A stretch of DNA of 64,000 nucleotides from Candidatus Bathyarchaeia archaeon (lineage in GTDB: Archaea > Thermoproteota > Bathyarchaeia > Bathyarchaeales > Bathycorpusculaceae). The notes under the pieces were generated by a model. The model saw only the letters and a list, made by a program, of their open reading frames with translations. It was not told the DNA's origin and did not search any database. The stretch lies in assembly GCA_049515895.1 (NCBI GenBank), contig JBEKTQ010000014.1, forward strand, positions 1 to 64,000. The letters run 5' to 3'. This document shows, in pieces, positions 27,899 to 48,602 of this stretch; positions within the stretch are counted from its first letter, which is position 1; the number at the start of each line of letters is the position of its first letter. The position numbers were made by a program, and so were the translations under genes.

Positions 27899-29227
27899 CT
27901 AATCCATACTTTTCTTTAGCTCATAGAGCAGTTTTGGTATGTCTGCACCATCGTAGATTTCATCAAAAATATCTGGGTAGTCTTTTTCGACTCTTTCCTT
28001 AAATGAGGACGGAACTATAAGAATCAGGTAATACAGGTCTTTGTATGATTGCCGAAAGAAGCGTAGTTTATCTACAAATTCCGTCTCTTCAGGATAAATT
28101 TGTGAAGGAGTTACCCACATTGGAAATCGCTCTCGCCCGTATGAGACTATTCTCTTTTCAAGAGGTGTCCAAATGCCGTGTGGCTCCAAAAGAACTATGT
28201 GACCCTTTCTTCTAACGCGCGGAAGAACAAAGTCAGGCTTATAATGAGGCGCTGGGCTTTCTTTTGGTAGCGACAACGGGTATGGCTCGAAAAGAAATAT
28301 GAGTTTGAGCTTGTTGAGTTCTTCCCGCACGTTTTTCTCAAACGTTGATTCATTTCTTGCAACGACATCAAAAGTAATTATTGGCCGGTTAAGCTGGCCG
28401 TTAATTTTTTTCCAGAATTGAAGATGACTTTTTAATACAGAAAAGCTTAGTTTCTCATCCCTAATCCAGCGACCCAAGACATAAAAAGGGTAATCGATCA
28501 CGGCTGGGTCTTCGGGAAACAAATGATTGGCAAATTCGGTAACGTTTGCTCGTTCGGATTCGATTTCTTCGGGGTGACTCCAATCTGGAACAGGGTTCTT
28601 ACATAAACCCAAACAGTACGCTACATTTCTGACAAAAGAAGTCAGAGGAATTTTGAGTTTTTTTGCTGATATATTTTGAAAAACGCCTAGATCAGGGTAA
28701 GGACGAACCATCCATCTCAAGTACATCCAAGCGTGGTCAATATGAACCCCACCCATTTGCGGGATCTCGGTCGCTATTTCTTTGACCAAGCATTCAGGAT
28801 CAGAAAATCGCTGAGCAAATTTCACGAGGCTTCCATTGGCAGTTTTATCAACAAAGAGATTAATTGATTCGAGCACCTGCGGAATCCTGTATTTGCCAGG
28901 ACCTAGAGGATAGTACGTGTTGAATTCTTCAGCAATCTTCTGGATTCTATTCTTTTGCCCTGGTATAAACAAGCCGTTACCTAAGGCACTATGAGCTGAG
29001 ACCATAAACGCTCTAGCCTTCTCCGACGTGCCTACCAGTTCAGCGGTGTCTAAAGCAGATATCAGCAGGAAGTAATGGGCGGTTTTCTCTTTTTCAGTCG
29101 ATGAATAAGGGTCAAAAAGAAGCTTCGATGAACTAGTTTTATCCCAATGAAGCTCAGTAACTGCTGAGCTTTTTTCAACATATTCTTTCAGGAGCGGCTT
29201 TAATTGATCAATCTCGTTTTCTGTCAT
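27899..29227 (-). CDS. DUF2400/HhH-glycosylase-like domain fused to a PD-(D/E)xK nuclease
   Basis: WMYLRWMVR, IPL..VRNVA..LGL, FPEDPAVIDY; C-terminal YKPDFVL..LLEPHG. Confidence 0.7.
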   Translation of the reverse strand: MTENEIDQLKPLLKEYVEKSSAVTELHWDKTSSSKLLFDPYSSTEKEKTAHYFLLISALDTAELVGTSEKARAFMVSAHSALGNGLFIPGQKNRIQKIAEEFNTYYPLGPGKYRIPQVLESINLFVDKTANGSLVKFAQRFSDPECLVKEIATEIPQMGGVHIDHAWMYLRWMVRPYPDLGVFQNISAKKLKIPLTSFVRNVAYCLGLCKNPVPDWSHPEEIESERANVTEFANHLFPEDPAVIDYPFYVLGRWIRDEKLSFSVLKSHLQFWKKINGQLNRPIITFDVVARNESTFEKNVREELNKLKLIFLFEPYPLSLPKESPAPHYKPDFVLPRVRRKGHIVLLEPHGIWTPLEKRIVSYGRERFPMWVTPSQIYPEETEFVDKLRFFRQSYKDLYYLILIVPSSFKERVEKDYPDIFDEIYDGADIPKLLYELKKSMD

Positions 29228-31780: not shown

Positions 31781-31908
31781 TTACGATCCCTGGTACCCCT
31801 AATTTTGAATTTTTGGTTTCACAGAATGTTATAGGTTTTTAATATAAAAGATTATGTAAGAAACCCATTATAGGCTTTTTTCACCATATTTGTTAAGATA
31901 TGAATTTC

Positions 31909-32649
31909 TCATGAGATCTTGTTTTCGCACTCTTCGAATCTACAGCTTTTGCATTTCTTGATATTACAATGATGGAAAGGTGCAAATTTACCCAAAGCCA
32001 ACAAAGCAAATCTATTGATCTTTTCCTTCAAGAAATTTTCTGCCTCCTCAGTTTGGACGCCTTGAAAAACTCTCAGACTCTCCATAGTTGCCTTATCTTT
32101 TATGTTGATGATCCAAGCTTTCTTCTCACACGGTATATCAAAACAAACCTTTGGGCTAAAAGGGAAGCTCTCACTAAACCGGGAGTTCAAATAAAGTAGA
32201 GTCTGAAGCTTTTGCGTATCATACGGCTCAAAAGTGTCTTGATACTTCTCTTTATTGGCAGGATATTTCGAATCTTCAACAATCAACGTTCCTTTGCTTC
32301 GCAGGACTTTGTCAGCCCTACCTAAAAGCAAAAGCGAAAGCTTCTCGTTTCCGAAAGATAATTCTCTCTGAAAACGAGTGTATAACCCCTCGCGAGCAAA
32401 CTCGATATCCCTCGTAAAATCTTCAAGTTCTTCAATGGTGACTGGCTTAAAGGTAAAATGCTCTTTCTCAAGCACTTCTTCTTTTTCATGCGATTTAGTG
32501 CCATCAATGATTATCTGTGTCTCAGGTGGCTTGATTCCTTTTAAGAAATGTGTTATGCTGACTTCGCAGTAACCCATGGACGCACAAAAATCAGAAACGG
32601 ATGCAGTTATTAGCGGGCTTCCATCTCGGGTTTGCTTTATCTTAATCAT
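31909..32649 (-). CDS. solo Cas4/exonuclease-V-like PD-(D/E)xK nuclease with Fe-S-type Cys cluster
   Basis: N-terminal YCE; H; GRAD..VEDSK; QxxxY; C-terminal CKSCRFEEC. Confidence 0.7.
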   Translation of the reverse strand: MIKIKQTRDGSPLITASVSDFCASMGYCEVSITHFLKGIKPPETQIIIDGTKSHEKEEVLEKEHFTFKPVTIEELEDFTRDIEFAREGLYTRFQRELSFGNEKLSLLLLGRADKVLRSKGTLIVEDSKYPANKEKYQDTFEPYDTQKLQTLLYLNSRFSESFPFSPKVCFDIPCEKKAWIINIKDKATMESLRVFQGVQTEEAENFLKEKINRFALLALGKFAPFHHCNIKKCKSCRFEECENKIS

Positions 32650-32788
32650 AATCTAAATCAATCAAGATAGCGCTTAAAAAGCAAACGACTTTGTCATTCA
32701 GGCATTTTTAGATTTTCCTCGTTCGATTGGTGAACAAGAAAAAACTACGAGATGTCGTTAGTTTAAGGTTTCAGTTTGGTATTTGGTT

Positions 32789-34255
32789 TTAGAGTTTGAA
32801 GGTTGCACCTGGTTCCTTTAACAGATAGACGTTTTTTGACCATTTTGTGTATGCTTGAGCATTTTCTGTATGAATCGGAATAACAGTTTTTGGGCTAACT
32901 TGTTCAACAAACTCCTTAAGCTGATTTGCCGAAGCATGCCCTGAAACATGAGTTGAGGTTATGCCCAATCCAAAATGGTTTATCCAGTTTTGGATTCTCT
33001 CCCAATCAATTTCCATTTCCGCATCAAAAGGCTCACAAACCGATTTAATGTAAACCGATCCCTCAATGGGGTCAATGTCGATTAGCTCCTTAAGATCAAA
33101 GTTGGTACAGAACATTAAGTAGTCTTTTTGGTTGGCTTTGATGTCTTTATAGCAGATAGAACGGTCGAGGTATGGTCGTTCCCATGTGTCGTAATCTTGG
33201 TTGCGTATCTTCAGGTCACACTTGCTGCTGCCTATGAGTCCCCAACTTTTCCTGTTAGCATAAAACGTAATGTTCCCATCGTCCAATTTAGGTGCTAATG
33301 TGTCTGAGCATTTAGAAAGTTGGTCGAGCAAATATGCTTGCTTGAGAGAAATTGCGAGCTTCTTATCCATTTTCTTAGCTGCGTTTAGGAAGGAGAGCAT
33401 TCGATCCGTGTCTCTAACAGACCAATTACAGACTGAAATCCCTTTTGCACCATTAGAAATGTTACAGATCTCATCTTCCACGTCTGCTTCTTTTTTTGAC
33501 GACTCCTCATCAACTCTTGTTCCTTCTATAACCAATAAATCGGGTCTAGCATCTTTGCAGGCATACATAAATTCAGTAGTTTCCTTTTCTCTGCGTCCAT
33601 GAAATCTAAAATCACCTGTGTAGACAACGGTACCTGACGAAGTGTGAATAATGTACCCAGTTGCTCCTGAAAGTGAGTGGTCAACTCGATAAGGTTCAAT
33701 GGTCAGATGCTTTATTTTGAAGGGTTTGCCAAATTCGAACGTTTGATAGTTTCGGTCAACTTTTAGGTCTTCGTGAGATTGAGTAGTCTTACGGCTTAAC
33801 TCACCTTTCTTGTTAACGTACGTTTCAAAGCACCGGGTCAAATCCGTTATATCGTTGAAGCTTCCTGCGCCTGTATCATTCATCGCCTTAAGAATACGGT
33901 AACTTTCTTGCGAGCAGAAAATGGGCAAATCCTCCCGAAGGTGGTTTATGTAAGAAGCATGGTCCGCATGGGCATGCGATAAAAGCATCCCATCAAAACC
34001 CAGCGACTCATGAGGACGCTCCATATGCTTAAGAAAATCTTCTCTGTAGAGTCCTTTAAGATCTGGAATAAGATTGAACTCGATAAAGTCGCCTAGGCCG
34101 TTGCATTTTCTGGGCTGCAAGAACTCCGAAAAATATTTGTTTGCCTGACTAAAACTCATTCCAAAATCCAAAAAAATCTTTGTGTCTCCGTCTTCAAGCA
34201 GAATCTTGTTACCGCCGATCTCGTTAACTCCGCCGTAAAACGTCAGCTCAACCAT
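32789..34255 (-). CDS. MBL-fold beta-CASP ribonuclease (RNase J/aCPSF2-like)
   Basis: GGVNEIGGN, LDFG, SHAHADH, VDHS, YTGD, HVSGHA, PIHTE. Confidence 0.9.
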   Translation of the reverse strand: MVELTFYGGVNEIGGNKILLEDGDTKIFLDFGMSFSQANKYFSEFLQPRKCNGLGDFIEFNLIPDLKGLYREDFLKHMERPHESLGFDGMLLSHAHADHASYINHLREDLPIFCSQESYRILKAMNDTGAGSFNDITDLTRCFETYVNKKGELSRKTTQSHEDLKVDRNYQTFEFGKPFKIKHLTIEPYRVDHSLSGATGYIIHTSSGTVVYTGDFRFHGRREKETTEFMYACKDARPDLLVIEGTRVDEESSKKEADVEDEICNISNGAKGISVCNWSVRDTDRMLSFLNAAKKMDKKLAISLKQAYLLDQLSKCSDTLAPKLDDGNITFYANRKSWGLIGSSKCDLKIRNQDYDTWERPYLDRSICYKDIKANQKDYLMFCTNFDLKELIDIDPIEGSVYIKSVCEPFDAEMEIDWERIQNWINHFGLGITSTHVSGHASANQLKEFVEQVSPKTVIPIHTENAQAYTKWSKNVYLLKEPGATFKL

Positions 34256-34541
34256 AATCGCTCGCTTCTACCGAACACATTAGTTTGAAGTCTTAATAGA
34301 AGCTTCTGAATTCCGGGCCTAGATTTTATAAGTTCTAACCTTAAACGCTGTAGGCCTCTAATGGATTTGCACTGAATCGGAGTCGGAACTATCATTTTAA
34401 GATCACTAACTTCCTCTAAAAATATAGAAAAAGCGCGCACGAGTGCCATGACTCAAGCTATGCTTGACGGTTTCGCAAATGTTTGCTAATGAATATATAG
34501 TAAATTTCTTAAACGAATTTGCCAAATAGTATTGGTGATGT

Positions 34542-36386
34542 TTGGTGTCTGTTCCAAAAGGTATTCATGGAATCGCAAAGAATGTTTTTGAACTATTAAT
34601 GAACAAAAAATACAAACTTGACTATTACCAAAGAGAATATACTTGGGAGACTTCGAACATAATCGAGCTCTTGGAAGATCTTACTTCCAAATTCTTTGTA
34701 GCTTTTGACAAGAATGATAATCGCGAAGACGTTAAGAAATATCCTACTTACTTTCTTGGTTCAATAGTAATTAATGAAAAAGAGAGCGGTAATTTCATAA
34801 TTGATGGGCAGCAACGTCTTACATCCTTAACTCTCCTTTTAATGTACCTTAATAATTTGCAGCAAAACATTCCAGAAAAAGTCAGTTTAGACTATTTGAT
34901 TTTTTCAGAATCATTCGGAAAGAAATCATTCAACCTTGAAGTAGATGAAAGAGACGCATGCATGGCCGCTCTTTACAAAAACAGTATTTTGGATGTGACA
35001 AACGCTAACGAATCGGTTAAGAACCTTTATGCACGTTACCAAGACATCAAAGAAAATTTTCCTGAAGATTTGGAAAATAACAGTCTACCCTTTTTCATCG
35101 ATTGGTTGTTAAACAGAGTTGAAATGGTTGAAATTAGAGCATTCAGCGACGAAGATGCATACACTATTTTTGAGACAATGAACGATCGTGGTGTCACACT
35201 AAACCCAACTGATATGCTAAAAGGGTACCTTCTAACGAATATGCATCCAGACAGCAGGTTGGCTGCAAATCAATTATGGCGAAGCCAAGTGGGCGACCTA
35301 ATAAAAATAGACAAAAATGAGGAAACTAATTTCTTTAAGGTGTGGCTGAGAGCAAAATATGCTCAGTCTATACGGGAGAGAAAAAGAGGCGCGATTAACC
35401 AAGATTGGGAGAACATTAACTCTTATCATCGATGGTTACGTCATGAATCCAAAGAATTGAAGCTTGAGAACCCAAACGATTTCTCAAATATTGTGACCTG
35501 TAATTTTAAATTCTTCTCCACTCAGCATATTAGAAATCTCATAGCTTCTGTCATGCTGAGCGAAGGAATGGAATACGTTTATTATAATGCCAGCAATGAA
35601 TTTACGCTTCAATACCCTTTATTGCTTGCACCTCTCAAAACTGCTGATGACAACAATGTTATCGACAAAAAAATCAGGCTCGTGGCTGGATATATTGACA
35701 TATTTATAGCCAGAAGAGTTTGGAATCAAAGAACACTCGGCTACTCTTCAATTGTCTACACTATGTTCAACTTAATGAAGGAGATAAGGGACAAGACTGT
35801 TGAGGAACTCGTAAGTATTCTTACAATGAAGGTTCAACAAATGGAAGAAACCTTCGAGTCTTACCCTGCATTTTCCTTGAACCAGCAAAATCGTAGATAC
35901 ATCCATCGTTTGTTGGCTAGAATTACACAACATATCGAGGAGCAAAGTGGAATTCCATCGCGCTATGAAGATTACATTTCAAGTGAAATAGCCAAACCCT
36001 TTGAAATCGAACACATATGGGCTAAGAAATTTGATTACCATACAGATGAATTTGATAATGATTACGAATTTCAGGAATACAGAAATCGTATAGGCGGATT
36101 ACTTTTAGTTCAAAGAGGTTTTAACCAAAGTTATGGAGAACTGCCGTACGTAGATAAGTTACCCCTCTATTTTGGTCAAAACCTTCTAGCAAAAAGCCTG
36201 AACCCAAATTGTTACAAATCAAATCCTAGCTTTGAAACTTACATCAAAGCGAGTGGCTTGCAGTTTCAGGCTCATCAAAATTTCAAAAAAAGCGATCTTG
36301 AACAGCGGATGATGCTTTACAAAGAAATTTGCAAGGAAATCTGGAACCCAAATAGGTTCGCGGCAGAATTAATGGGTACCGTCTAG
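34542..36386 (+). CDS. DUF262 + DUF1524 (GmrSD/SspE-like) modification-dependent nuclease
   Basis: YQREYTW, IDGQQRLT, FETMNDRG; C-terminal EHIW..GGLLLV..N. Confidence 0.9.
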   Translation: MVSVPKGIHGIAKNVFELLMNKKYKLDYYQREYTWETSNIIELLEDLTSKFFVAFDKNDNREDVKKYPTYFLGSIVINEKESGNFIIDGQQRLTSLTLLLMYLNNLQQNIPEKVSLDYLIFSESFGKKSFNLEVDERDACMAALYKNSILDVTNANESVKNLYARYQDIKENFPEDLENNSLPFFIDWLLNRVEMVEIRAFSDEDAYTIFETMNDRGVTLNPTDMLKGYLLTNMHPDSRLAANQLWRSQVGDLIKIDKNEETNFFKVWLRAKYAQSIRERKRGAINQDWENINSYHRWLRHESKELKLENPNDFSNIVTCNFKFFSTQHIRNLIASVMLSEGMEYVYYNASNEFTLQYPLLLAPLKTADDNNVIDKKIRLVAGYIDIFIARRVWNQRTLGYSSIVYTMFNLMKEIRDKTVEELVSILTMKVQQMEETFESYPAFSLNQQNRRYIHRLLARITQHIEEQSGIPSRYEDYISSEIAKPFEIEHIWAKKFDYHTDEFDNDYEFQEYRNRIGGLLLVQRGFNQSYGELPYVDKLPLYFGQNLLAKSLNPNCYKSNPSFETYIKASGLQFQAHQNFKKSDLEQRMMLYKEICKEIWNPNRFAAELMGTV

Positions 36387-36399: not shown

Positions 36400-37545
36400 A
36401 TGAATCAAATAACTGACAACTCTTTTGAGTTGAGCATGCGACAGAACCAAAATCAGCTTGAGTGCAAACTAACAAAAACCCCTTGCATATCTATGACTGT
36501 AGCTTCAAAGGAATTCTTCCTAGAACAAAAAACACTTTCAAGCATAATAGATTCCTACAGCACCGTTGCTAAGCTGGTTGGAAAAAAGAAGACAAGAAAT
36601 ATAGATTTTTTTGAAGCTCTATCGATTTTGGGCGCTGAAATCGGCTTTGGGATCGCAAATATTTTTGAACATTTTGGATTAATGTACACCAAAAGGCGTA
36701 TCAACCTAACACTAAAACTGGATGATTGGACTCGAAGAATCCCATGGGAACTAGCCATGGTCCCAGATTACCCAGAACAACTGCTCTGCGAAAGATTCAA
36801 TATTGGAAGAGCAATGGATGTTGAATGTAAAAATCAATGGGAAACAGCTCCTAACACGAAAACAAGTAAACGGAGTTTAAAATCATTAGTTGTCGGACTA
36901 AATTACACGAAGAATTCAATATACACTCCATTAGATCGGTCAGAAGAAGATGCTAAAGCAGTACACGAATACTTGACAAAATTCTCAAAAAGCAAGAATG
37001 GAAGAGACTTGGAAGTTCTTCCAAAACTAATAGGTGGAAACGCAAGAAAAGAGACATTGGAAAAACGGTTAAAAGAAGGAATAACTATGTTTCATTTTTC
37101 TGGGCATGGAGAACTTTACAGAAATATTGGCAAAATAATTCTAGCTAATGATAAACAATTAACAACTAAGGAACTCAGTTGCATATTCTATAACAATCAA
37201 ACTAGGGCACCGACATTTTCTTTCATGAACGCATGCGAGACCTGCCTTCAAAAAAATGGTGAATCGGACATCCATGATTGGGCCCTCGCAATGGCTACAT
37301 ATGGCGCTAGGGCTCTAATCGGTACTTTTTGGAGCGTTATGGATGAAGATGCAACCGATTTTTCATTAGCATTCTATAGGTATTTCTTGAAGGAAGGAAA
37401 GACGATAGGCGATTCTGTACGGAGAGCAAGACTCTTTGTTAAGGATAAGAAAACTGAAGGAAACGATTTAGACCCCATGGTCACTTGGTCCGCATTCGTG
37501 CTGTATGGTCCTCCTATGTTAAAAGCAAGAGATATTTTGGTATAA
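36400..37545 (+). CDS. CHAT (caspase-like) domain protein
   Basis: IPWEL, FHFSGHG (His), MNACET (Cys), W..FVLYG. Confidence 0.85.
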   Translation: MNQITDNSFELSMRQNQNQLECKLTKTPCISMTVASKEFFLEQKTLSSIIDSYSTVAKLVGKKKTRNIDFFEALSILGAEIGFGIANIFEHFGLMYTKRRINLTLKLDDWTRRIPWELAMVPDYPEQLLCERFNIGRAMDVECKNQWETAPNTKTSKRSLKSLVVGLNYTKNSIYTPLDRSEEDAKAVHEYLTKFSKSKNGRDLEVLPKLIGGNARKETLEKRLKEGITMFHFSGHGELYRNIGKIILANDKQLTTKELSCIFYNNQTRAPTFSFMNACETCLQKNGESDIHDWALAMATYGARALIGTFWSVMDEDATDFSLAFYRYFLKEGKTIGDSVRRARLFVKDKKTEGNDLDPMVTWSAFVLYGPPMLKARDILV

Positions 37546-37728: not shown

Positions 37729-38844
37729 ATGACAATAATTGTCGCAGTGAAGTTCTCCAACGGAGTAGTTGTTGCAACAGATAGTAGGTCCATTTATGGA
37801 GAAGCACAATATGTACGAGACACGGAAAGAAAGATAGATACCTTAAACGATAAAGTTGCCGTCACTTCTTCAGGAATCAGGGCAGCGTCTAATAGAATAT
37901 TCAAAGAGCTTAGATCTTATGTGGAAGCAAATGAGAATCTAACTTTTGACGAAATTGTTAGTGAATGTGAAGATCTCATGAGGAACTTTTATAAAAGGTA
38001 CAGTGGTCGTCTGAAGGAAGAGTTAGAGGACGGTTGGAGTTTTGAGCTGTTTTCCTCGGAAAGAATGGTTATTATTGAATCTGATGGAGTTGCTGACGAA
38101 GAAGAAAGTTATCTTTGTGATGGAAGTGGTACTCCCTATGCTGAGTACATTCTGCGACAGCGTTACAAGCCAGATCTTACAGAACAAGAATGCAAAGAAC
38201 TTGCCTGCTATGTTGTTCTTCAAACATCTCTGATAGACCCTAATGTCGGAGGACCCGTAAATCTGTGCGTTCTAAAAGAAATAGGTCTTAAGCACTTAAC
38301 ACGCCCTGAAATAGACGAGATTGTCGAGAATATCAAAGAAACTCCTATAGAACAACAAATAAAAATTCAAAGTTTAGTTGAGGAAATTGTTGAGGAAAGA
38401 CGATGGATTAATGACTTGTTTAAAAACAAATTCAAGACAGCCTTATTCAAACAGGATGAATACGCCATTTCGCAGATTCAAAAAACTTGCAAAAACGAAA
38501 ACGATTTTACCAACAGAATATCGGCGCTAGCGGTATTGATAGACCGAACGGAATCATTAGATGTTGATGACAGACTTGGAGAAAAAAACAAGGCTTCCAT
38601 CAATCGGTTGCAAGTCTTCGCAGATAAAAATATGCCCAAGCTAAATCCTGAGTGTATTAAAAATCTAAGAGAAATCTACACGCTTAGAAGCCACAAGATG
38701 CCAATTCACGAAGATGATCCAAGATTAATGCAGATACTCCTTCAATGGGAATACAAGATACCACCTAACTGGGGAAATCTTTGGGAGAAAGCTCTCACAA
38801 AATATCGGGACAGCCTAAAGATGTTGAAAGCAGCTGTTCAGTGA
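37729..38844 (+). CDS. proteasome beta-like Ntn hydrolase fused to a helical HEPN-like C-terminal domain
   Basis: Thr1 after Met, Asp17 (ATDSR), Lys34, GSG, D..VGG; C-terminal LRSHKMPIH. Confidence 0.75.
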   Translation: MTIIVAVKFSNGVVVATDSRSIYGEAQYVRDTERKIDTLNDKVAVTSSGIRAASNRIFKELRSYVEANENLTFDEIVSECEDLMRNFYKRYSGRLKEELEDGWSFELFSSERMVIIESDGVADEEESYLCDGSGTPYAEYILRQRYKPDLTEQECKELACYVVLQTSLIDPNVGGPVNLCVLKEIGLKHLTRPEIDEIVENIKETPIEQQIKIQSLVEEIVEERRWINDLFKNKFKTALFKQDEYAISQIQKTCKNENDFTNRISALAVLIDRTESLDVDDRLGEKNKASINRLQVFADKNMPKLNPECIKNLREIYTLRSHKMPIHEDDPRLMQILLQWEYKIPPNWGNLWEKALTKYRDSLKMLKAAVQ

Positions 38845-39006: not shown

Positions 39007-40101
39007 TTGGCTAAAAAACATGTATTGCTCGTCGAACCTGACTATTATACTCAATTCCCGCCGCTAGGACTGCTAAAGCTTTCCACTTTTTATAAGAATC
39101 AAGGTTCAACTACAGAATTGATTCGTGGAACTAAGGATTGTAGCCGGGAACCTGATTTAATTTACATTACCAGTCTTTTCACGTGGTCTTGGGAACCAGT
39201 GTGGAAAGCAGTTAGATTCTACTCCACCTCATTTCCAAGTTCAGACCTATGGCTGGGTGGACTTTACGCTTCTTTGATGCCCGAGCATGCAGCACTAAGT
39301 GGAGTTCACACTGACCACGTTTTCAAAGGAATATTTCCTGAAGCTGAAAATCTTCGTCCAGATTATAGTCTTGTACCAGAATGGAATCAAAAGGAAAAAG
39401 CGAGTATTCTCTTCTCATCCAGAGGTTGCATAAGAAACTGTGGATTCTGCGCAGTTCCACAATTGGAAGGCAAAATAGTTACTAACAGCTCACAAATTAG
39501 TGATTTGCTTTATCCTGAACACACTAAGATCATATTATTTGACAACAATTTTTTGGCTTCTTCAAAATGGGAAAGCACTCTTGAGGAGATTAAGAGTCTC
39601 GATTTGAGAGTGGATTTCAATCAAGGTTTGGATGCTAGACTGATAACACCTTTAGTTGCTAAGAAATTGGCAAAGGTCAAAATTGACAAGGTAATTAGAT
39701 TGTCGTATGACAATTGCCAAACTGGAACAAATGTTGAGAAAGCAATTAAGCTTCTCAAATCTGAAGGAATTAATGGAAAAAGCATACTCGTGTACACGCT
39801 ATTCAATTTCACAGACGATCCACAGGACTTTTTTGAACGCATGAAAGATGTTCTCAAATGGGGCGCAGTCTGTTACCCGATGCGTTATGAGCCTTTGCGA
39901 ACACTTTTCAAAAACAAATATGTTTCTTCAAAATGGACAGCTAACGAACTTGAAGCAATTCAGAGAGCACGCAGAGTAATCGGTTTTGGAGGAGCTTTTG
40001 CACCTCATAAGGGCATGCTAAACGTAAAAGTGGAAAACTGTAACACTTTCGAAAAAGCTTTCAAGGAGTTTATGAATCCAGAGGCGAAGATAGAAGAATG
40101 A
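39007..40101 (+). CDS. radical SAM protein with B12-binding-like N-terminus
   Basis: SRGCIRNCGFC (CxxxCxxC); PPLGLLKL, GGLYASL; DNN; DFNQGLD. Confidence 0.85.
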   Translation: MAKKHVLLVEPDYYTQFPPLGLLKLSTFYKNQGSTTELIRGTKDCSREPDLIYITSLFTWSWEPVWKAVRFYSTSFPSSDLWLGGLYASLMPEHAALSGVHTDHVFKGIFPEAENLRPDYSLVPEWNQKEKASILFSSRGCIRNCGFCAVPQLEGKIVTNSSQISDLLYPEHTKIILFDNNFLASSKWESTLEEIKSLDLRVDFNQGLDARLITPLVAKKLAKVKIDKVIRLSYDNCQTGTNVEKAIKLLKSEGINGKSILVYTLFNFTDDPQDFFERMKDVLKWGAVCYPMRYEPLRTLFKNKYVSSKWTANELEAIQRARRVIGFGGAFAPHKGMLNVKVENCNTFEKAFKEFMNPEAKIEE

Positions 40102-41408
40102 TTTGTACATGTTGCGGTTTTGAAATTCAAGGTCAAACTCACCAAATCGAAAATGGAGAAAAACAAGTTTGTGACAAATGTTGGAATAATCCTTCTTTCT
40201 TTTTTTCTGAAAAAGCAAAGACGGACACTCGTTTCAAACTGCTTTCCGAAATTGCTGTACAAAATCAAAACAGCCCAAAAACAATCGAAATAAGTGTTCT
40301 AAAATTATCTCAGAAAAACATTGATCTTTACATTGGAAAAATGAAATCCAAGGATATATTGCAACTCTACGAAGTTGACAAGTTTAAAGATGAGGAACTT
40401 GAAGGCTATCAACGTGAACAATATGAAGAAAGGACATCAGAACTAATAGAATACCTTACTGAATGTCCCATTGCCGTAATGCCAAGCCTCTTTGTCAGTC
40501 TGAGGAATGCGAAATTTGTAGCATCGAAAGACGATTTTGGTATTCTCCGAATTCCAAAGGTCAGAGGTGCAATTTGGATAATCGACGGTCAACATAGAGT
40601 AGGAGGATTTGAAAAGCTTTATCAGAAGTTTACTTATCAGCGAAAACCAAATGAAATTTCGACCGAAACATTTGCAACACTCATGGATTATGAACTCCCA
40701 ATAGTTTTCATAGATACGCAAAAAGCAGCAGTAAAAACGAATACCTTGAAAATGGGAAAAAGCGAAATAATGCCAGAAGACCTTGAGAGGGCAATATTTT
40801 TTGTTGTCAACAAGACTCAGAAAGGAATTAGCTCTTCGCTAAAAGATGCGTTACTTTACCGCCTGAATGTTAGCGGAATTGATGGAATTCCAGCTTTAAG
40901 AAAAGAAAAGTGGAGAATTCAAGCTGCACACGTTGGTATTTCTTTAAATCGAGAGCTTGATTCACCTCTTAAAGGTTTGATTAATATTGGTGGAAAAGCG
41001 GGAACAAGAAAGCCAATCCAGTTGAACTCTTTTGTTTCCTCCTTAGAACTGCTTTTCAACGACAAGAATTTTGCGAAATTGGAATATAACAAGCAAGTCC
41101 AGTTTTTAAAATTCTATTGGGAATCCCTGAGAAAAAATGTTCCTCAAGCATTCGATTTAGCATCTTGGAGAGATTATATGCTTCTAAAAGCTATTGGAGT
41201 TTATTGTGTTCATTGGCTTGCGTTAGATGTCTTCAACATCTGCTTAACGAACGAACAGCGTTTTGATGAGCAGGAGACTTTAGATAAAATTGTTAGCAAG
41301 ATGAGTGATTTTGACTGGAAAACACAAACGTCGCTATTGTCAACATTGGGCGGTCTCAAAGGTGCTAAGCGGGGCTACGAGAAAATCAAACTTTGTTTAA
41401 CAACCTGA
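40098..41408 (+). CDS. DGQHR (DndB-like) protein with N-terminal Zn finger
   Basis: YQR, IDGQHR, FFVVNKTQK; CTCC..CDKC; 4-bp overlap with the radical SAM gene. Confidence 0.9.
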   Translation: MICTCCGFEIQGQTHQIENGEKQVCDKCWNNPSFFFSEKAKTDTRFKLLSEIAVQNQNSPKTIEISVLKLSQKNIDLYIGKMKSKDILQLYEVDKFKDEELEGYQREQYEERTSELIEYLTECPIAVMPSLFVSLRNAKFVASKDDFGILRIPKVRGAIWIIDGQHRVGGFEKLYQKFTYQRKPNEISTETFATLMDYELPIVFIDTQKAAVKTNTLKMGKSEIMPEDLERAIFFVVNKTQKGISSSLKDALLYRLNVSGIDGIPALRKEKWRIQAAHVGISLNRELDSPLKGLINIGGKAGTRKPIQLNSFVSSLELLFNDKNFAKLEYNKQVQFLKFYWESLRKNVPQAFDLASWRDYMLLKAIGVYCVHWLALDVFNICLTNEQRFDEQETLDKIVSKMSDFDWKTQTSLLSTLGGLKGAKRGYEKIKLCLTT

Positions 41409-41511
41409 CAACCTAAAATCCTCTTTCTTTTCAGAAAACTGGTAACACATAATAGATGTTATATATCAAGTCTGCCAACTGTTAGACAACCGCGAGGTTA
41501 CGACCTAAGAA

Positions 41512-43614
41512 ATGAGCCTGAAGGGTCTTTCTCTTAAGAAATCTTACAATTCAGATACCGACAATATCCTTCAAGATTTCTACATTCGATCTCTTTCCGT
41601 TTCAATAGAATATAAAAGACTAACAGGTTTCTTCTCGTCAACGACCCTCGCTTTAGCGGCAAAGGGGATGACTGCCTTTATTCGTAATGGCGGGACGATG
41701 AAACTGGTTACAGGTGCACGTTTTCAAGAAGCAGATATTCGAGCAATAAAAGAATCCCTTGAATCTCCTGAAGAAATTTTGAAAGAAGAAATGTTAAAAG
41801 AGCTTAACACTCTCGAAGACAAATTCATAAAGGATCATGTACGTGCTTTAGGTTGGATGATTGTTAACAAGCGATTAAAAATAAAAGTTGCAATAGTCCT
41901 CTCAGATGATGGGTATCCTCTTGAGTCGAGAAAAGTGGAGAAACAAGGTATATTCCATCAAAAAGTGGGAATATTGGAAGATTTTGAAGGAGATATGGTT
42001 TCTTTCAGCGGTTCAGACAACGAAAGTGCACACGGTTGGCAAAAAAACATTGAAGAATTCAAAGTTTTCAGAAGCTGGGAAACAGGTGAGTCGGAGTACT
42101 TTCAATCCGATTTGGAAAAATTCAATCGGTTCTGGGATGGAAACGCTATCAGAACAAAAATCATCGACATCCCAAAAGCAATTGAGGAGAAGCTTATCCA
42201 AATTGCTCCTAAAAACTTTGAAGAATTAGACTTAGAGCAACCTGAAGTAGTTCAAAGTAACGTTGCTGAACCTAAACTTAGACCTTATCAAGTAAAGGCA
42301 GTCGGGGATTGGATAAACAATGGCTACTATGGAATTTTTGAAATGGCTACAGGAACAGGCAAGACCTTCACCGCATTAGCATGCATGGATACACTGATGA
42401 AAAAAGAAAACAAAATAGTCACAGTAATCAGTGCACCTTACAATCATCTATGCGAGCAATGGATAGCTGAAACTGACAAATTCGGCATCAAGACCGTTAA
42501 ATTAGTCTGCGATTCCACTGAACCTCATTGGAAGGACAAACTAGTCGATAACCTGATTGACCTTGAAAATGGAGTGATTGAAAACCTGACGATTTACACT
42601 ACTCATAACACATTTTCTTCAACGGATTTTACGGAAATAGTTAGAGAAAACAAGTTAGATAACGCTAATCTGAAGTTCTTTCTTATTGTCGATGAGGTGC
42701 ATGGAATAGGAGCACCAATTAGGCGTAATGGGCTTATTGACGAATACGATTTTCGATTAGGACTCAGTGCTACTCCGAAAAGATGGTTTGATTACGAGGG
42801 AACTGATAGAATATTTGATTACTTTAAAGATGTAGTCTTTAGTTTTCCGTTGAAAGATGCCATTCAAGCTGGTTTTCTAACACCATATGTGTACAAACCA
42901 TTTTTTGCATTTTTAACAGAAAAAGAAATGAAAAGTTATGAAGAGGAGACTCGTAAAGTCTCAAGAGCATATTATGCTTCGAGGAATGACGTTGAAAGAG
43001 ACGAGGCTTATACTCTACTATGTATAAAACGACAACGTATCGTTCGAAATGCTGAAAACAAGCTGATTGAGTTCCAAAAAATATTGGATAAAATTGGTTC
43101 TTTGCAAAATTGCCTAATTTACAGTTCACCCCAGCAAATCAAGATTGTCCAAGAAACTTTAAACAAAAGAAATATCATTCAACACAAGTTCACACAGCAG
43201 GAAGGTACAAAACCTGAAAGTAAGTTTGAAGGACTTTCCGAGAGAGATTTTCTAATCAAAAGATTTTCAGAGGGGTTCTATCAGGCATTAGTCTCTATGA
43301 AGTGCCTTGATGAAGGAGTCGATGTACCTCCAGCTCGGGTTGCAATTATCTTAGATAACTCAGGTAATCCACGAGAGTACATTCAACGAAGAGGGCGAGT
43401 CTTGCGTCTTTTTCCTGGAAAGTCAATAGCTACAATTTACGATATAATTGTTGAGCCGAGATTAAATAACGCAACCCCAATTGAACTTAAGGAACTTGAA
43501 AAAAAGATAGTTTTAAAAGAACTTCAGAGATACAGAGACTTCGCTGAATCCTCCAATAATGTTGACGAATGCTTGAGGACGTTAAATGAAATAGAAGCAG
43601 CATATGGCATTTGA
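41512..43614 (+). CDS. PLD + SF2 helicase, PbeA-like
   Basis: FHQKVG..GSDNES; ATGTGKT, DEVH, SAT, LDEGVDVP, QRRGRVLR. Confidence 0.85.
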   Translation: MSLKGLSLKKSYNSDTDNILQDFYIRSLSVSIEYKRLTGFFSSTTLALAAKGMTAFIRNGGTMKLVTGARFQEADIRAIKESLESPEEILKEEMLKELNTLEDKFIKDHVRALGWMIVNKRLKIKVAIVLSDDGYPLESRKVEKQGIFHQKVGILEDFEGDMVSFSGSDNESAHGWQKNIEEFKVFRSWETGESEYFQSDLEKFNRFWDGNAIRTKIIDIPKAIEEKLIQIAPKNFEELDLEQPEVVQSNVAEPKLRPYQVKAVGDWINNGYYGIFEMATGTGKTFTALACMDTLMKKENKIVTVISAPYNHLCEQWIAETDKFGIKTVKLVCDSTEPHWKDKLVDNLIDLENGVIENLTIYTTHNTFSSTDFTEIVRENKLDNANLKFFLIVDEVHGIGAPIRRNGLIDEYDFRLGLSATPKRWFDYEGTDRIFDYFKDVVFSFPLKDAIQAGFLTPYVYKPFFAFLTEKEMKSYEEETRKVSRAYYASRNDVERDEAYTLLCIKRQRIVRNAENKLIEFQKILDKIGSLQNCLIYSSPQQIKIVQETLNKRNIIQHKFTQQEGTKPESKFEGLSERDFLIKRFSEGFYQALVSMKCLDEGVDVPPARVAIILDNSGNPREYIQRRGRVLRLFPGKSIATIYDIIVEPRLNNATPIELKELEKKIVLKELQRYRDFAESSNNVDECLRTLNEIEAAYGI

Positions 43615-43629
43615 TAAGAGAGAGAGAAA

Positions 43630-43827
43630 ATGTCGTCAGTAAATAGAAAGATAATAAACCAAATTGAAAATAGCGACTACACGCCTGAAATCAAAGAACT
43701 GCTAAACTCCTTACTACAAATAGAAGCCAGAATCGCCGAAGACAAGAAACCTCACTATTCGGAAGATTATGACAGAGTGATAAAAAACCTTGCCAAGAAA
43801 CGAGGGTATCGGGAGGATGAAGAGTGA
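43630..43827 (+). CDS. small protein, PbeB-like
   Basis: 65 aa, between the helicase and the SMC-like ATPase; overlaps the next gene. Confidence 0.7.
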   Translation: MSSVNRKIINQIENSDYTPEIKELLNSLLQIEARIAEDKKPHYSEDYDRVIKNLAKKRGYREDEE

Positions 43828-45812
43828 ATCTCGACTATCTTCAAATGAAAAATTTCCGACAATATCAGGACGCTCGAATAGAGTTCTCTCAATCTCCAAC
43901 AAGAAATTTCACAATTATTCAAGGGGTAATGGGGGCTGGAAAAACTAACATTCTAAATGCTGTAACTTGGTGTCTCTTTGGAGACGAGAAACACATTGAT
44001 AAGAAATACAAAGGGCTTCCAATTGTTAATACTTCAGCCCTTTCAAAATGCGAGGGAAAAGTTTGCGAAGTCAAAGTTGAACTGCAAATTATTCAGAGCG
44101 ATGGAAAGCGAATTAGAGTAACCAGATGTGAGAATTGGAGAGAGCAAAACAGTAACTTATCAAAAATTAGTATGCAACATGACTTTTCTATAATGAGAGA
44201 AACTGGAAGGGATTGGGTTGGACCAATTTATGGGGATGATGCGCAATATATCGTTGATAGCCTAATTCCTCCTTCGATTGAGGAATACTTCTTTTTTGAC
44301 GGCGAACGAATGAATGATTACTTCAGGGAAAATACTGGTAAGGACATCAAAAGTGCAGTTTTTAAAATTTCTCAATTAGAACTTTGCGAATCGCTAATTT
44401 CACACCTATCGGCAAGAAGAAGTGAGTATCTAAGACTATCAAGAGGACTAAGCTCGAAAGCAAATGATATTAAAATGATTGTTGAAACCCTCGAGAAGTC
44501 GCAAGAATCAGACAAAGAACGTTTGAAAGAACTATTGAGAGATCAAGCAGAAGCACAACGAATAGAAAAAGAATACAGTGATAAGCTACGAAATTCATCG
44601 CTTGAAAGAATTGAGAGCTTAGAAGAACGCCGAGTTGGTTTGGAAGACGATTTAGAGCGTATCGCTGATGACATCGAGGAACTAGAAAAAGAGAAAGTGC
44701 AATTCCTTCATAAGAATATGCCAATAATCTTTGCTTTTGATGCCCTTACAAAAACTAAATCGCTGATAGAAGGGCGAAAAGAAGCTGGAATGATACCTCC
44801 GCCAGTTAAGACAGTTTTTATCGACAGCTTACTTAAAAAAGGAAAATGCATTTGCGGAAGTGACATAACCGCCAAAGACGAGCTTTCTTGCACAAGAAGA
44901 AAAAGAGTTGAGGCTTTTCTAAGGCAAAGTGAATTGTCGGAAATGAGCAATGACCTAATCAACTGCAATGTTCAGATTCAAGCTATGATTGACCAAGTCA
45001 AAGTTTTTCCAGATACTTCAGTACAGTTAGGTAAAAGATTAAGAGAACTCCAAACACTTAAGGACACAAAAAACACGGACGTTGAAAAAATAAAGGTAGA
45101 AATTTCGCAAAGCAATGCGGAGAATATTAAAGAATGGGGAAAAGAAAGAGACAAATATAATGAGAAAAAAATCAAAATAGGAAATGAAGCGGCCATTCTC
45201 AATAGTACCATTGGCAGACGTGACAACATAATTAGAGCAAGAACGAGTGAATTTACAAGGGAACTGAAGAAAGAGGCAAGGCACAACTCCCTTGTTAGTC
45301 TAATGACTTTTTGTGAAGAAGGAATACATGCCGCACAAGAAGTCAGAGATGCTATTATGAAAAATGTCAAAGATGAGATATGTAAGAAAACAAGTGAGCA
45401 ATTTCTCTCACTGATTTGGAAAAAAGGAACCTACAATGGCGTTGTAATTGATGATGACTACAATATCTCAGTGCCCCATGTCTCTGGGCGAGAAGGGCTG
45501 GGAACACTTTCGGCTGGGGAACGGCAAGTTTGTGCCTTATCATTCATGGCGGCGTTGAATAGCGTTTCTGGTTTTGACGTTCCAATCATAATAGACACAC
45601 CTTTAGCAAGAATATCTAATGAACCGACAAGAAGCATTGCTGAGAATCTTCCTAATTATCTGCCTAACAAACAAGTTTCATTGCTAGTAACAGACAAGGA
45701 GTATACCCCTGAAGTAAAAGAAACCTTAAGCAAAGTAGTCGGTAAAACATACATAATAAATTTCATAGAAAAAGACTATGGTGGTTTATCGGAGCTGGTG
45801 TTTCAATCATGA
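43824..45812 (+). CDS. DndD/SMC-like ABC ATPase with CxC hook, PbeC-like
   Basis: NFRQY, GVMGAGKT, FFFDGE, coiled coil with CICG, LSAGE, IIDTP. Confidence 0.88.
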   Translation: MNLDYLQMKNFRQYQDARIEFSQSPTRNFTIIQGVMGAGKTNILNAVTWCLFGDEKHIDKKYKGLPIVNTSALSKCEGKVCEVKVELQIIQSDGKRIRVTRCENWREQNSNLSKISMQHDFSIMRETGRDWVGPIYGDDAQYIVDSLIPPSIEEYFFFDGERMNDYFRENTGKDIKSAVFKISQLELCESLISHLSARRSEYLRLSRGLSSKANDIKMIVETLEKSQESDKERLKELLRDQAEAQRIEKEYSDKLRNSSLERIESLEERRVGLEDDLERIADDIEELEKEKVQFLHKNMPIIFAFDALTKTKSLIEGRKEAGMIPPPVKTVFIDSLLKKGKCICGSDITAKDELSCTRRKRVEAFLRQSELSEMSNDLINCNVQIQAMIDQVKVFPDTSVQLGKRLRELQTLKDTKNTDVEKIKVEISQSNAENIKEWGKERDKYNEKKIKIGNEAAILNSTIGRRDNIIRARTSEFTRELKKEARHNSLVSLMTFCEEGIHAAQEVRDAIMKNVKDEICKKTSEQFLSLIWKKGTYNGVVIDDDYNISVPHVSGREGLGTLSAGERQVCALSFMAALNSVSGFDVPIIIDTPLARISNEPTRSIAENLPNYLPNKQVSLLVTDKEYTPEVKETLSKVVGKTYIINFIEKDYGGLSELVFQS

Positions 45813-46753
45813 GCGAAAGAAAAAAGCCAGACAGATTTTATGTGGAAAAGAAGGATAGAGAAGACTGGAATAGACTCAAAGACAAAGACAGCCCATTTGC
45901 AGGTGCTGACAATAAAGATGTTTTCATAGCTGCAATGATGACAGGTTACTTTGAAAAAGCCGAATTTGAGCTTAAGACTAAAGACGGGTATTTCTTCGCA
46001 GACAATTTAAAGCCGCAGGAAGAGGCAATTGTAAAAGCTATTGCTGTTTCAAAAACTGGAAGTCTGAATGTTCTCCTTGACACTGAGAGAGTTTACGAAA
46101 TTGCTGAGCAGTATGCCACAGGAGGACTAAAAATCCTCAAAAACAAGGTCTTTAGCGGTGAATACGGGTCATACTCCAAAAAACTTGAAGCTGAATTACT
46201 CCGACAGTACACCAAGATTACCCAAAACGTACCTGCTCCTCCGACTGTTGATGAACTTGAAGGAATACCATTAATGGATCTAATTTTAGGAGGAGAAACA
46301 GACAAAGTAGAGCTCAAATCTTCATTCCTATGGGATTACCAAAAAAAGTCATACTCCAAAGAAGTCAAGATCGCTGTGGTTCGAGCAATTGCATCTTTCA
46401 TGAATTCAGAAGGTGGCTTTTTGATTATTGGAGTGGACAATGACCAAAATCCACTTGGATTAGAGCTTGACTGGACGCAATGTCAGAACAGTTTTGATGT
46501 GTGGAAGCAGACTCTTGCTAACGCTATAAACACTTACCTTGGAAGAATTAACAACATTCTTGTGACTAGCCGTAAAGAGAAATTTGAAGATAAAGACGTT
46601 GTAATACTGAGGATAAAGAAATCGCCACACCCTGTATATCTAACCTACGAAGACAAAAAACAGGATTTCTTCATACGGGGAGATGGTACGTCTCAGCAAT
46701 TGAGCATGAGCGATACAACTCAATATGTGCAGGAACATTGGAAAGATCAGTAG
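45809..46753 (+). CDS. DndE/PbeD-like N-domain fused to a Schlafen/AlbA_2 domain
   Basis: NKDVFIAAM..AEQYATGG; ETDKVELKSS..ASFMNSEGG..IGVDN. Confidence 0.75.
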   Translation: MSERKKPDRFYVEKKDREDWNRLKDKDSPFAGADNKDVFIAAMMTGYFEKAEFELKTKDGYFFADNLKPQEEAIVKAIAVSKTGSLNVLLDTERVYEIAEQYATGGLKILKNKVFSGEYGSYSKKLEAELLRQYTKITQNVPAPPTVDELEGIPLMDLILGGETDKVELKSSFLWDYQKKSYSKEVKIAVVRAIASFMNSEGGFLIIGVDNDQNPLGLELDWTQCQNSFDVWKQTLANAINTYLGRINNILVTSRKEKFEDKDVVILRIKKSPHPVYLTYEDKKQDFFIRGDGTSQQLSMSDTTQYVQEHWKDQ

Positions 46754-47654: not shown

Positions 47655-48122
47655 TCACAAAGAAGAAAGAAGCGTATAAACAGTTAAGGCAATGATTATG
47701 GAATAGAGTGCAATAAACATTATCGGACACCATTTTTCAGTAGAAGCTAAACCTTTACGCTTTCCCGAATAGTTTCTTTCTTCAAATTTGAACACGCTTG
47801 CTGGCATCGATTGCTCAAGTTCATGAATTACTTTAAACTTAGCTGCGTTCAACTCTTTGTAAGATGCTATACTTTGAATCCAAACCACAGAGATTATTAT
47901 TCCCATCACCGACAAAAGGATAAAGACAGCATGTTGATTAATAATTGTTAGATATCCAGCTATACCCAAAACGATTGAGCTTAGAGTAAGATAGAACTTG
48001 TTTGATTCAAGCCTTTTTGAAGTCACATCAAGAGAGGTTTCCACATAGAGTTTGTACTGTTCAAGCAAATGCTCCTGAAGGTGTTCTCCATAGTTTTTGT
48101 TTATGAGTTCATCGCTTGCCAA
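47655..48122 (-). CDS. small multi-TM putative pore effector
   Basis: LLEQYKLYVE..R..N.FYL, 2 TM, W..Y..LN.AKF.VI..LE, third TM. Confidence 0.7.
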   Translation of the reverse strand: MASDELINKNYGEHLQEHLLEQYKLYVETSLDVTSKRLESNKFYLTLSSIVLGIAGYLTIINQHAVFILLSVMGIIISVVWIQSIASYKELNAAKFKVIHELEQSMPASVFKFEERNYSGKRKGLASTEKWCPIMFIALYSIIIALTVYTLLSSL

Positions 48123-48602
48123 CTAGTCATTCTCCAACTCATTCTGTATTGCGTTTAAGTCCCAATTTATGACCTTCGCATGGTTGTCTTTGCATGGTTG
48201 AGGAATCTTGTGGTTTTCATCTCGATAAATTCTAACGCAGACAACCTTTTTGTTTAGTTCATAGGCTTTGTTGATTTCCCAATTAACTGCTTCTCTTTGG
48301 TGAGTTTCAGGTCCGACCATAACAATGACAACAGAAGTGCGATTAATTCGATCAGTACATTGTGTTTTCCACTTTTCGTCGAAAGGTTCTTTGACAGAAT
48401 AGTCTGTGAATTGAATGTCTGATTGTTCATCTTTGGCTTGCTGCCTCAACAGGTTGACTTGCGCTTCATCTTCAACATGAAAGCTAATGAAAACTCGGGG
48501 TTTAGGGGTTCTTTCGTTATGGTCAGCATAGTCGTCCAATGTTTTGCTTTTTCCTGATGAAGATACGTGTGATTTTCGGAAACCACGACCTCCTCCACCC
48601 AT
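48123..48602 (-). CDS. ThsB/MTH538-like TIR domain with Gly-rich leader
   Basis: RVFISF, FTDYS, VIVMVG, VNWEI (catalytic Glu); N-terminus MGGGGRG. Confidence 0.85.
   Translation of the reverse strand: MGGGGRGFRKSHVSSSGKSKTLDDYADHNERTPKPRVFISFHVEDEAQVNLLRQQAKDEQSDIQFTDYSVKEPFDEKWKTQCTDRINRTSVVIVMVGPETHQREAVNWEINKAYELNKKVVCVRIYRDENHKIPQPCKDNHAKVINWDLNAIQNELEND

Follow-up and report, generated by a model that had tools for sequence, protein, structure and literature searches.

Which enzyme could mark self DNA for a PbeABCD-type gene set that has no Dnd modification genes beside it? This question is raised by positions 1-64,000 of contig JBEKTQ010000014.1 of a Candidatus Bathyarchaeia archaeon (assembly GCA_049515895.1); this whole stretch of 64,000 nucleotides is called the window. 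Open reading frame (ORF) calling gave six co-directional ORFs on its + strand at 39007-46753, exactly where a first-pass annotation of the same DNA had placed them, encoding a radical S-adenosylmethionine (SAM) enzyme, a zinc-ribbon DGQHR protein, PbeA, a PbeB-like small protein, PbeC and PbeD. The stretch was represented in three DNA sequencing runs (shares 1.00, 0.96 and 0.62), and no RNA run was listed for it. In haloarchaea, according to the available part of Xiong et al. 2019 (PMC6459918), PbeABCD works with DndCDEA phosphorothioation. We propose, with a probability of roughly 60%, that the six genes of the window work as a restriction-modification-like system in which radical chemistry produces the self mark, and that this mark is probably put on DNA by the radical SAM enzyme together with the DGQHR protein.

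The first-pass annotation had recognised four Pbe-like genes, and homology supported PbeA, PbeC and PbeD, with PbeB assigned by size and position. PbeA (41512-43614, + strand, 700 amino acids, aa) matched the PADLOC PbeA model with 747 bits over residues 2-686 and TIGR04095 with 419 bits, below the 600-bit cut-off of that model. It joins an HKD/phospholipase D (PLD)-type nuclease to a superfamily 2 (SF2) helicase (Pfam ResIII and Helicase_C), and the motifs HQKVGILED...GSDN (from residue 149), GTGKT (281-285) and DEVH (394-397) were found. PbeC (43824-45812, + strand, 662 aa) scored 439 bits with PADLOC PbeC and 155 bits, below the cut-off, with TIGR03185, and contains the Walker A sequence GVMGAGKT (34-41) and the CxC zinc hook motif CIC (342-344) of a DndD-like ABC ATPase. 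The earlier description of this protein as SMC-like had to be replaced, since it is rather a DndD-like ABC ATPase of the CxC type, as presented in the available text of PMC10853773, and not an SMC protein.

Throughout, L numbers designate fetched loci, G numbers genomes of the host's class (G000 being the window genome) and P numbers representative members of the enzyme family. Residues 23-130 of PbeD (45809-46753, + strand, 314 aa) matched the 145-aa PbeD of the dnd-linked pbe operon of a congener (G175; 33% identity, E 7e-15), and a weak match to TIGR04062 (24 bits, cut-off 74) covered residues 25-120, so that the N-terminus is assigned as a DndE-cognate domain; the C-terminus carries an AlbA_2 (Schlafen-like) domain (E 3e-17, residues 163-298). 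The PbeB-like ORF (43630-43827, + strand, 65 aa) corresponds to PbeB in its size and in its location from pbeA to pbeC and was assigned on those alone. Homologous ORFs with 50-74% identity were found in L004 and L008-L011, with no detectable relatives beyond these close loci, and the protein showed no similarity to PADLOC models nor to its small counterpart from the dnd-linked operon of G175. PADLOC contained no model for either PbeB or PbeD of the window locus. Overlaps of 4 nucleotides (nt) were present at the junctions between the radical SAM and DGQHR genes, between pbeB and pbeC and between pbeC and pbeD, and a gap of 103 nt separates the DGQHR gene from pbeA.

Profile searches of the whole genome (3.18 Mb in 53 contigs, 100% complete by markers; the assembly contains no McrA and no 16S gene) found no DndC, no DndE, no DndD-like gene besides PbeC and no match to 3'-phosphoadenosine 5'-phosphosulfate (PAPS) reductase above the cut-off. 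No class-V aminotransferase was found on the window's contig, those of the genome being located on other contigs. The first-pass annotation had seen no DndC PAPS reductase or cysteine desulfurase nearby and had suggested a genome-wide search for dndC; its observation now holds genome-wide for DndC and along the contig for class-V aminotransferases. DndC was also missing from all five other genomes carrying the full six-gene set (0/5; completeness not reported), and these whole-genome searches cover five of the genomes of the 16 Pbe-linked loci described below. As a positive control, 12 of 401 genomes of the phylum scored above the cut-off, showing that the search was able to detect the gene. 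The DndCDEA-PbeABCD phosphorothioate form was rejected for the window on these grounds, dndC and dndE being absent from the genome and its sole DndD-like gene being PbeC.

What precedes pbeA differed between related genomes. PbeA was found in three of the 201 genomes sampled from the host's class, and DndC in none of them. In the window genome, the radical SAM and DGQHR genes stand directly upstream of pbeA. In G175, of the same genus and with a PbeA 47% identical, this place is taken by a fragment of DndE at the contig edge, which with 21 bits fell short of the cut-off, together with a class-V aminotransferase, the order being the canonical dndCDEA-pbeABCD one cut off by the contig end, and in G136 an N6_N4 DNA methylase was found. 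Judged by gene order, the enzyme-DGQHR pair is placed in the modification slot upstream of pbeA. The finding of three different modules at the same slot fits the view taken in the available parts of PMC6459918 and PMC10853773 that the Pbe/CxC core pairs with varied modification genes; the latter describes a CxC ABC ATPase-DndE core that combines with different modification genes or with none.

The radical SAM enzyme (39007-40101, + strand, 364 aa) contains the sequence CIRNCGFC (CxxxCxxC) at residues 141-148, and C141, C145 and C148 were its only invariant cysteines in an alignment of 56 homologues, indicating that it has no second cluster of the MiaB type. Its match to Pfam Radical_SAM was weak (E 0.006, below the cut-off), the homologue in L054 exceeded that cut-off with 32.5 bits, and weak matches to NCBIfam models were confined to the cluster loop. 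PADLOC (v2) contained no model for the enzyme, and comparison of PDB sequences with the profile of the 56 homologues found nothing outside the cluster loop (best E 0.001). The enzyme matched the phage family phrog_9298 with 212 bits.

The AlphaFold (AF2) model of the enzyme had a predicted local distance difference test score (pLDDT) of 95.7 and a predicted template modelling score (pTM) of 0.91, and showed an N-terminal Rossmann (B12-binding-like) domain followed by a radical SAM barrel. The best Foldseek matches were MgmA 9ccb (E 5e-12) and TsrM 6wte; the relatives found (MgmA, TsrM, MtaB/MiaB, AprD4, OxsB, CysS, RimO and TokK, E 5e-12 to 7e-7, TM 0.54-0.63 by query length) share the plan of a radical SAM barrel preceded by a Rossmann domain. 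Spore photoproduct lyase, a radical SAM enzyme that acts on DNA, was rejected as a fold relative, being only weakly similar (TM 0.31). Identity as a MiaB/RimO methylthiotransferase was also rejected, with no conserved cysteine outside CxxxCxxC and no TRAM domain before the end of the protein at residue 364. The gene had been described in the first-pass annotation as an overlapping, B12-binding-like radical SAM gene: the overlap and the radical SAM motif stood, and B12 binding is suggested by the fold and the homologues and not by the protein's own Pfam score. The homologue in L018 passed Pfam B12-binding PF02310 (36.7 bits, cut-off 32.1), the window enzyme did not reach E 0.01 with that family, and the genome encodes CobS and CbiB. 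AprD4 is a radical SAM enzyme that works without cobalamin. Methyl transfer dependent on a cobamide is allowed by the predicted fold and the B12-binding matches of homologues, and cobalamin-free chemistry of the AprD4 kind would fit equally well.

The DGQHR protein (40098-41408, + strand, 436 aa) had been annotated as a Zn-finger DGQHR gene, and this agreed with our results: it passed NCBIfam TIGR03187 (102 bits, cut-off 58.85), has the CxxC pairs of an N-terminal zinc ribbon at residues 3-6 and 25-28, the DGQHR motif at 163-167 and a match to Pfam DndB (E 2e-13). C3, C6, C25 and C28 were invariant in 29 homologues. Assignment as DndB or DpdB proper was rejected, NF041060 (DpdB) giving 42 bits against a cut-off of 300 and TIGR04172 giving 36 bits against 450. 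The partners in the DISARM-linked and methanogen clade (L013-L017 and L032) read DGQQR, not DGQHR. A second DndB-domain protein of 766-787 aa was found directly upstream of the radical SAM gene in L016 (4902-7253), L017, L032, L043 and L044, so that in these loci the enzyme gene is flanked by two DGQHR-type proteins; similarly, plasmid pNL1 encodes a DGQHR protein of 769 aa, on the opposite strand.

A model of the complex between the enzyme and the DGQHR protein reached an interaction score (ipSAE) of 0.74 (0.74, 0.77 and 0.74 in the separate runs) against 0.00 for the best of three controls. The runs shared at least 95% of their contacts, with a partner pLDDT of at least 79. When the tool was calibrated, 58 of 80 solved complexes reached this ipSAE mark, as did 2 of 110 mismatched pairs; the calibration applies only roughly because our own alignments were used. 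In the modelled interface, the zinc ribbon of the DGQHR protein (residues 4-8 and 27-61) lies against conserved segments of the enzyme (59-101, 146-147, 268-269 and 296-308). The model supports the DGQHR protein as a predicted binding partner of the radical SAM enzyme.

The enzyme belongs to a large family, with 2737 word-sharing homologues at E up to 0.001 and, in a full phmmer scan, 2256, 1231 and 211 representative clusters (50% identity) at E up to 1e-3, 1e-10 and 1e-30, respectively. Its distribution is patchy, with the enzyme in 8 of the 201 genomes sampled from the host's class. One of the genomes of that class (G004) has two paralogues 4 kb apart (C1:634008-635069 and 638210-639313; L085 and L092), which are 52% and 42% identical to the window enzyme. 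We fetched 80 genome loci with an enzyme homologue, called their ORFs, clustered the neighbours and counted those within six genes of the enzyme. Pbe genes were present in 16 of the 80 loci, 10 of them with PbeA, PbeC and PbeD and 6 cut by contig ends or partial.

A quick IQ-TREE tree of 75 rows was used to follow these associations. In the 15-row clade of the window, the zinc-ribbon DGQHR gene was directly downstream of the enzyme gene in every row (15/15), and in the 9-row subclade that contains the window eight loci were beside pbe genes, the ninth ending at a contig edge. The position of pbe relative to the enzyme varied within this subclade, being downstream (window and L004), upstream (L008 and L010) or divergent (L009 and L011). 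The synteny of the radical SAM, DGQHR and pbe genes, whose conservation the first-pass annotation had proposed to check, is thus kept, rearranged yet adjacent. The Pbe label was clustered on the tree (0 of 500 shuffles as low), and well-supported branches forced at least four changes of this label and at least five of the DISARM label; since relatives share labels, these changes show repeated association and not rates. In distant relatives from Planctomycetota, Nitrospirota and Myxococcota, with 31-33% identity, the enzyme gene likewise came directly after pbeD within one operon.

Other gene sets were found near the enzyme in the remaining loci, their genes mostly contiguous on one strand: DrmA/DrmB in 11 of the 80, a ParB-like/136-aa protein/SNF2/ParB-like set in 13 and a c13-c10 set in 10, often with a GHKL ATPase; the sets of L031 and L036 include an Eco57I-type N6 methylase. 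None of the four sets was detected in 30 loci, of which 11 had only the GHKL gene and 5 only the DGQHR gene, several being short contigs. The enzyme is a shuffled module that is not specific to Pbe and also serves operons of the DISARM-like, ParB/SNF2 and GHKL types. In the DrmA/DrmB(-PLD) operons with enzyme relatives, PADLOC identified DrmA (571 bits) and DrmB (176 bits); a DNA methylase was not a recurring gene in the operons scanned. The 1116-aa protein c24 of the DISARM-like loci L014 and L015 had no Pfam or PADLOC match, and the SNF2 protein c8 of the sister operons matched PADLOC DpdE with 112 bits. Homologues of 668-687 aa with an uncharacterised C-terminal extension of about 300 residues (L061, L064, L068, L071, L072, L074, L076, L077 and L079-L083) were mostly from Bacillota, most of them in DrmA-DrmB-NERD helicase operons in which a GHKL ATPase gene comes next, with a Y-family polymerase gene also found downstream in L074 and L076. 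The proposal of the first-pass annotation that the radical SAM enzyme makes the self mark gained support from the absence of dnd genes and the conserved synteny, with the limit that the enzyme is not confined to Pbe loci.

Fusions were surveyed in the best 150 representatives of the phmmer scan. Five of these had an N-terminal extension of more than 200 aa, four with C5 cytosine DNA-methylase domains and the fifth without a Pfam match. The PCQ/SCQ and ENV catalytic motifs were present in all three of the fusions inspected (P0283, P0344 and P0345), P0286 matched only the C-terminal part of the methylase profile, and one further hit had a weak ParB_N-like domain at its C-terminus. We infer from the methylase fusions that the 5-position of cytosine, or 5-methylcytosine, is a concrete candidate for the modified site. 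Four family members (P0277, P0278, P0303 and P0315) were interrupted by inteins with LAGLIDADG homing-endonuclease domains.

A tblastn search also detected the family in 18 records of phages and 22 of plasmids. The copy of Marinitoga camini virus 1, with 48% identity, is a solitary one, and in the LoVEphage the copy of the enzyme is beside Dam fragments; a Bacteroides LoVEphage locus (L098) also has a PAPS-reductase gene near the radical SAM gene and, about 3.5 kb from it, a DUF2400 gene (L098:662-1414); the window's island, described below, also has a DUF2400 gene. On alphaproteobacterial plasmids, among them pNL1 of Novosphingobium aromaticivorans (genes SARO_RS17520-17535), a DGQHR gene, a radical SAM gene and an ATP-binding gene follow one another, and Rhizobium and Mesorhizobium plasmids also carry family members. 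At least 450 IMG/VR stretches encode a relative, and 80 of them were fetched for their neighbourhoods: 3 had DISARM, ParB/SNF2 or c13-c10 modules with a GHKL partner, 9 had a C5 methylase within 6 kb, further ones had weak SNF2, PbeA or ParB-like matches and 60 showed none of the queried genes. Neighbours in the ESM Atlas included a cluster that was 82% viral among 33 members of known phylum. This spread, with mostly solitary copies on viral contigs, is the pattern known of DNA-modification enzymes, restriction-linked in cells and orphan in phages.

The alternating partners (DGQHR/ParB-like protein, GHKL ATPase and fused C5 methylase) all handle DNA, and the larger modules are translocase and nuclease sets; for this reason we read the locus as a modification module coupled to PbeABCD, in which DNA as the substrate, the nature of the mark and its read-out by Pbe are inferred. 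In the proposed mechanism, a first module of radical SAM enzyme and DGQHR protein would mark the cell's own DNA. The ParB/DndB-like DGQHR protein would hold the enzyme through its N-terminal zinc ribbon and bring it to DNA, and the enzyme would alter a base or sugar by means of a 5'-deoxyadenosyl radical; a cobamide may carry the methyl group. In the second module, the CxC ABC ATPase PbeC and the DndE-like PbeD may scan DNA, PbeA may provide the HKD nuclease and the helicase and PbeB may be a small regulator, so that PbeABCD would act on unmarked DNA, the mark having the part that phosphorothioate has in DndCDEA-PbeABCD systems.

A wider proposal for the whole family is more tentative, and we hold it with somewhat less than even odds. 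The family would write a chemically new DNA mark, distinct from N6, N4 and C5 methylation, phosphorothioate and 7-deazaguanine, which would label self DNA for four or more unrelated restriction chassis (Pbe, DISARM-like, ParB/SNF2 and GHKL-type); the lone enzyme of phages would allow them to counterfeit the mark. An example of such a mark would be an ethyl group built on the 5-methyl of 5-methylcytosine or thymine by way of a cobamide methyl carrier.

Several observations weigh against a radical SAM self mark read by Pbe. DNA modification is deduced and none has been observed, and cobalamin binding by the enzyme is unproven, the window protein being below the Pfam cut-offs for both B12-binding and Radical_SAM. 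The fusions to intact C5 methylases suggest that the enzyme might need 5-methylcytosine first, and the window operon is without a methylase. An N6 methylase (c44) is also present in the operons of L031 and L036, and about five methylase-domain proteins were found among 113 other operon proteins in 48 loci; with a conventional methylase in a minority of operons, the enzyme is not always the sole marking activity. The enzyme-DGQHR pair occurs without Pbe in L013-L017 and L032, and Pbe without the pair in G175 and G136, and since the units occur apart and are separated by the 103-nt gap, they could be two neighbouring systems. In addition, 165 of 553 PbeAC pairs have no modification gene within 10 kb according to the available part of Xiong et al. 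(PMC6459918), which implies that Pbe may work unpaired.

The last two observations are those that favour the alternative of two independent neighbours, a self-contained enzyme-DGQHR pair with a role in modification only or in defence, beside a Pbe set that works without any mark. The window is moreover a dense defence island, where defence genes cluster. We consider this explanation unlikely, because pbe genes were adjacent in eight of the nine rows of the subclade despite three gene orders, relatives with 31-33% identity in three other phyla again stand directly after pbeD, and the clustering of the Pbe label on the tree was matched by none of the 500 shuffles.

The enzyme could instead be an effector or sensor that damages or tags invading DNA or makes a modified nucleotide, delivered by its DGQHR, GHKL or helicase partners. 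Prokaryotic viperins are radical SAM antiviral effectors. The enzyme is always beside DNA translocases and nucleases, and another radical SAM antiviral effector, Ophion, is described in the available part of a preprint (bioRxiv 10.1101/2025.09.30.679545). Solitary phage copies are common, however, and lie next to orphan Dam or C5 methylases, fusion to intact C5 DNA methyltransferases is in keeping with a role in modification, and the enzyme takes the slot of the Dnd genes or the methylase upstream of pbeA, all of which make an effector or sensor as improbable as independent neighbours.

Modification of a protein or peptide of the system, for example the small PbeB, in the manner of the B12-type radical SAM peptide methylases, is a much less probable role. 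The closest folds do include protein- or peptide-modifying enzymes such as MgmA, and a small protein is encoded in the operon, but no PbeB-like protein accompanies the enzyme in the DISARM, ParB/SNF2 or GHKL contexts or the solitary phage copies, and the partners and fusion domains are DNA-binding. Least credible is a phosphorothioate or other sulphur mark made by radical sulphur insertion in place of DndC, as MiaB and RimO act on RNA and protein: MiaB, MtaB and RimO rank high among its fold matches and Pbe works with phosphorothioate in the available account of PMC6459918, but only the three cysteines of CxxxCxxC are invariant, leaving no auxiliary-cluster triad, the enzyme lacks a TRAM domain and the contig encodes no cysteine desulfurase.

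The modification system with a radical SAM partner that we prefer was compared with known systems. It resembles DndCDEA-PbeABCD of haloarchaea (PMC6459918, as far as its available part shows) in the homologous PbeA, PbeC and PbeD, the PbeB-sized gene, the order pbeABCD and the modification-type module directly upstream, and differs in the lack of dndC and dndE in the genome, in the radical SAM enzyme and zinc-ribbon DGQHR protein upstream and in the extra AlbA_2 domain of PbeD. With the CxC ABC ATPase-DndE systems (PMC10853773) it shares the HKD-SF2 helicase, the small protein, the CxC ABC ATPase and the DndE cognate, G136 being the methylase form; the available text of that paper does not describe a radical SAM/DGQHR partner, and its only use of 'radical SAM' is in the introduction, on DndC. 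No paper describing the pairing of a radical SAM enzyme with a DGQHR protein was found in the literature search, and Supplementary Data 4 of Xiong et al., which lists 'candidate base-modifying proteins' near solitary PbeAC pairs, may already hold such genes. ProPhylo (PMC3226654) and the Ophion preprint, which use the same words, were set aside as concerning other things.

Class B radical SAM enzymes (MgmA 9ccb, TsrM 6wte, TokK 7kdx and CysS 9n1b) have the same Rossmann domain and barrel (TM about 0.55-0.62), and some homologues of the window enzyme pass Pfam B12-binding; with 364 aa the window enzyme is shorter, is without their C-terminal domains and probably has DNA as its substrate. The likeness to DISARM (defence island system associated with restriction-modification; DrmA, DrmB and DrmC plus a methylase) applies to the sister loci and not to the window: enzyme relatives occur in DrmA-DrmB(-PLD) operons, where the partner is a DGQHR protein or a GHKL ATPase. 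In the Dpd system of 7-deazaguanine DNA modification, DpdA works with DpdB. The resemblance here lies in a DGQHR/ParB-like protein paired with a DNA-modifying enzyme next to helicase-rich restriction genes, and in the match of c8 of the sister operons to the DpdE model, but the window enzyme is a radical SAM protein and not a transglycosylase, and its DGQHR partner has a zinc ribbon of its own and falls far below the DpdB cut-off. In the thymidine hypermodification of Pseudomonas phage M6, a phage-encoded radical SAM step reportedly acts on DNA bases after replication; that pathway involves another radical SAM family and another context (a kinase and a pyridoxal phosphate enzyme), and none of these was found here.

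The flanks of the six-gene locus form a defence island with GmrSD, Mrr and ThsB-TIR genes. Upstream, a run of nuclease genes at 30056-36386 marks the island and consists of an Mrr_cat gene (30056-31780, - strand), a PD-(D/E)XK gene (31909-32649, - strand), a metallo-beta-lactamase/RMMBL gene (32789-34255, - strand) and, at its end, the GmrSD gene (34542-36386, + strand); a DUF2400 protein is encoded within the island at 27899-29227 (- strand). Between the GmrSD gene and the radical SAM gene are a CHAT (caspase-like) protease gene (36400-37545) and a gene for a 371-aa protein (37729-38844) with an N-terminal domain like the proteasome beta subunit, an unusual pairing that is possibly another defence module. 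Downstream, at 47655-48602 (- strand), the gene of a ThsB-like TIR protein (159 aa) immediately precedes that of an 8xMP octameric membrane protein (155 aa), and the two could be a Thoeris-like system or a TIR-membrane effector pair. A 1002-aa protein begins at 61841 and runs through the end of the window at 64000 to 64849 of the contig (L099:5842-8850). The C-terminal third of this protein is a C5-cytosine DNA methylase in which the two halves of the Pfam profile match in swapped order (184-322 before 3-194), so that the domain has the look of a circular permutation. The genome has no other C5 methylase; this one lies 15 kb downstream of pbeD and could feed 5-methylcytosine to the radical SAM enzyme or belong to another system.

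The known self marks of restriction-type immunity are methyl groups, phosphorothioate and 7-deazaguanines. If our proposal is true, radical SAM marking would be a fourth self-mark chemistry and would probably involve a new DNA nucleoside. The chance that the chemistry of the mark is of a kind new to DNA is considerable. Radical SAM marking could also explain part of the Pbe systems described as 'solitary' in 2019 and of the DISARM-like operons without a recurring methylase gene. The family is large and occurs in cultured hosts, on plasmid pNL1 of Novosphingobium aromaticivorans, on Rhizobium and Mesorhizobium plasmids and in Marinitoga camini virus 1, which makes the idea directly testable.

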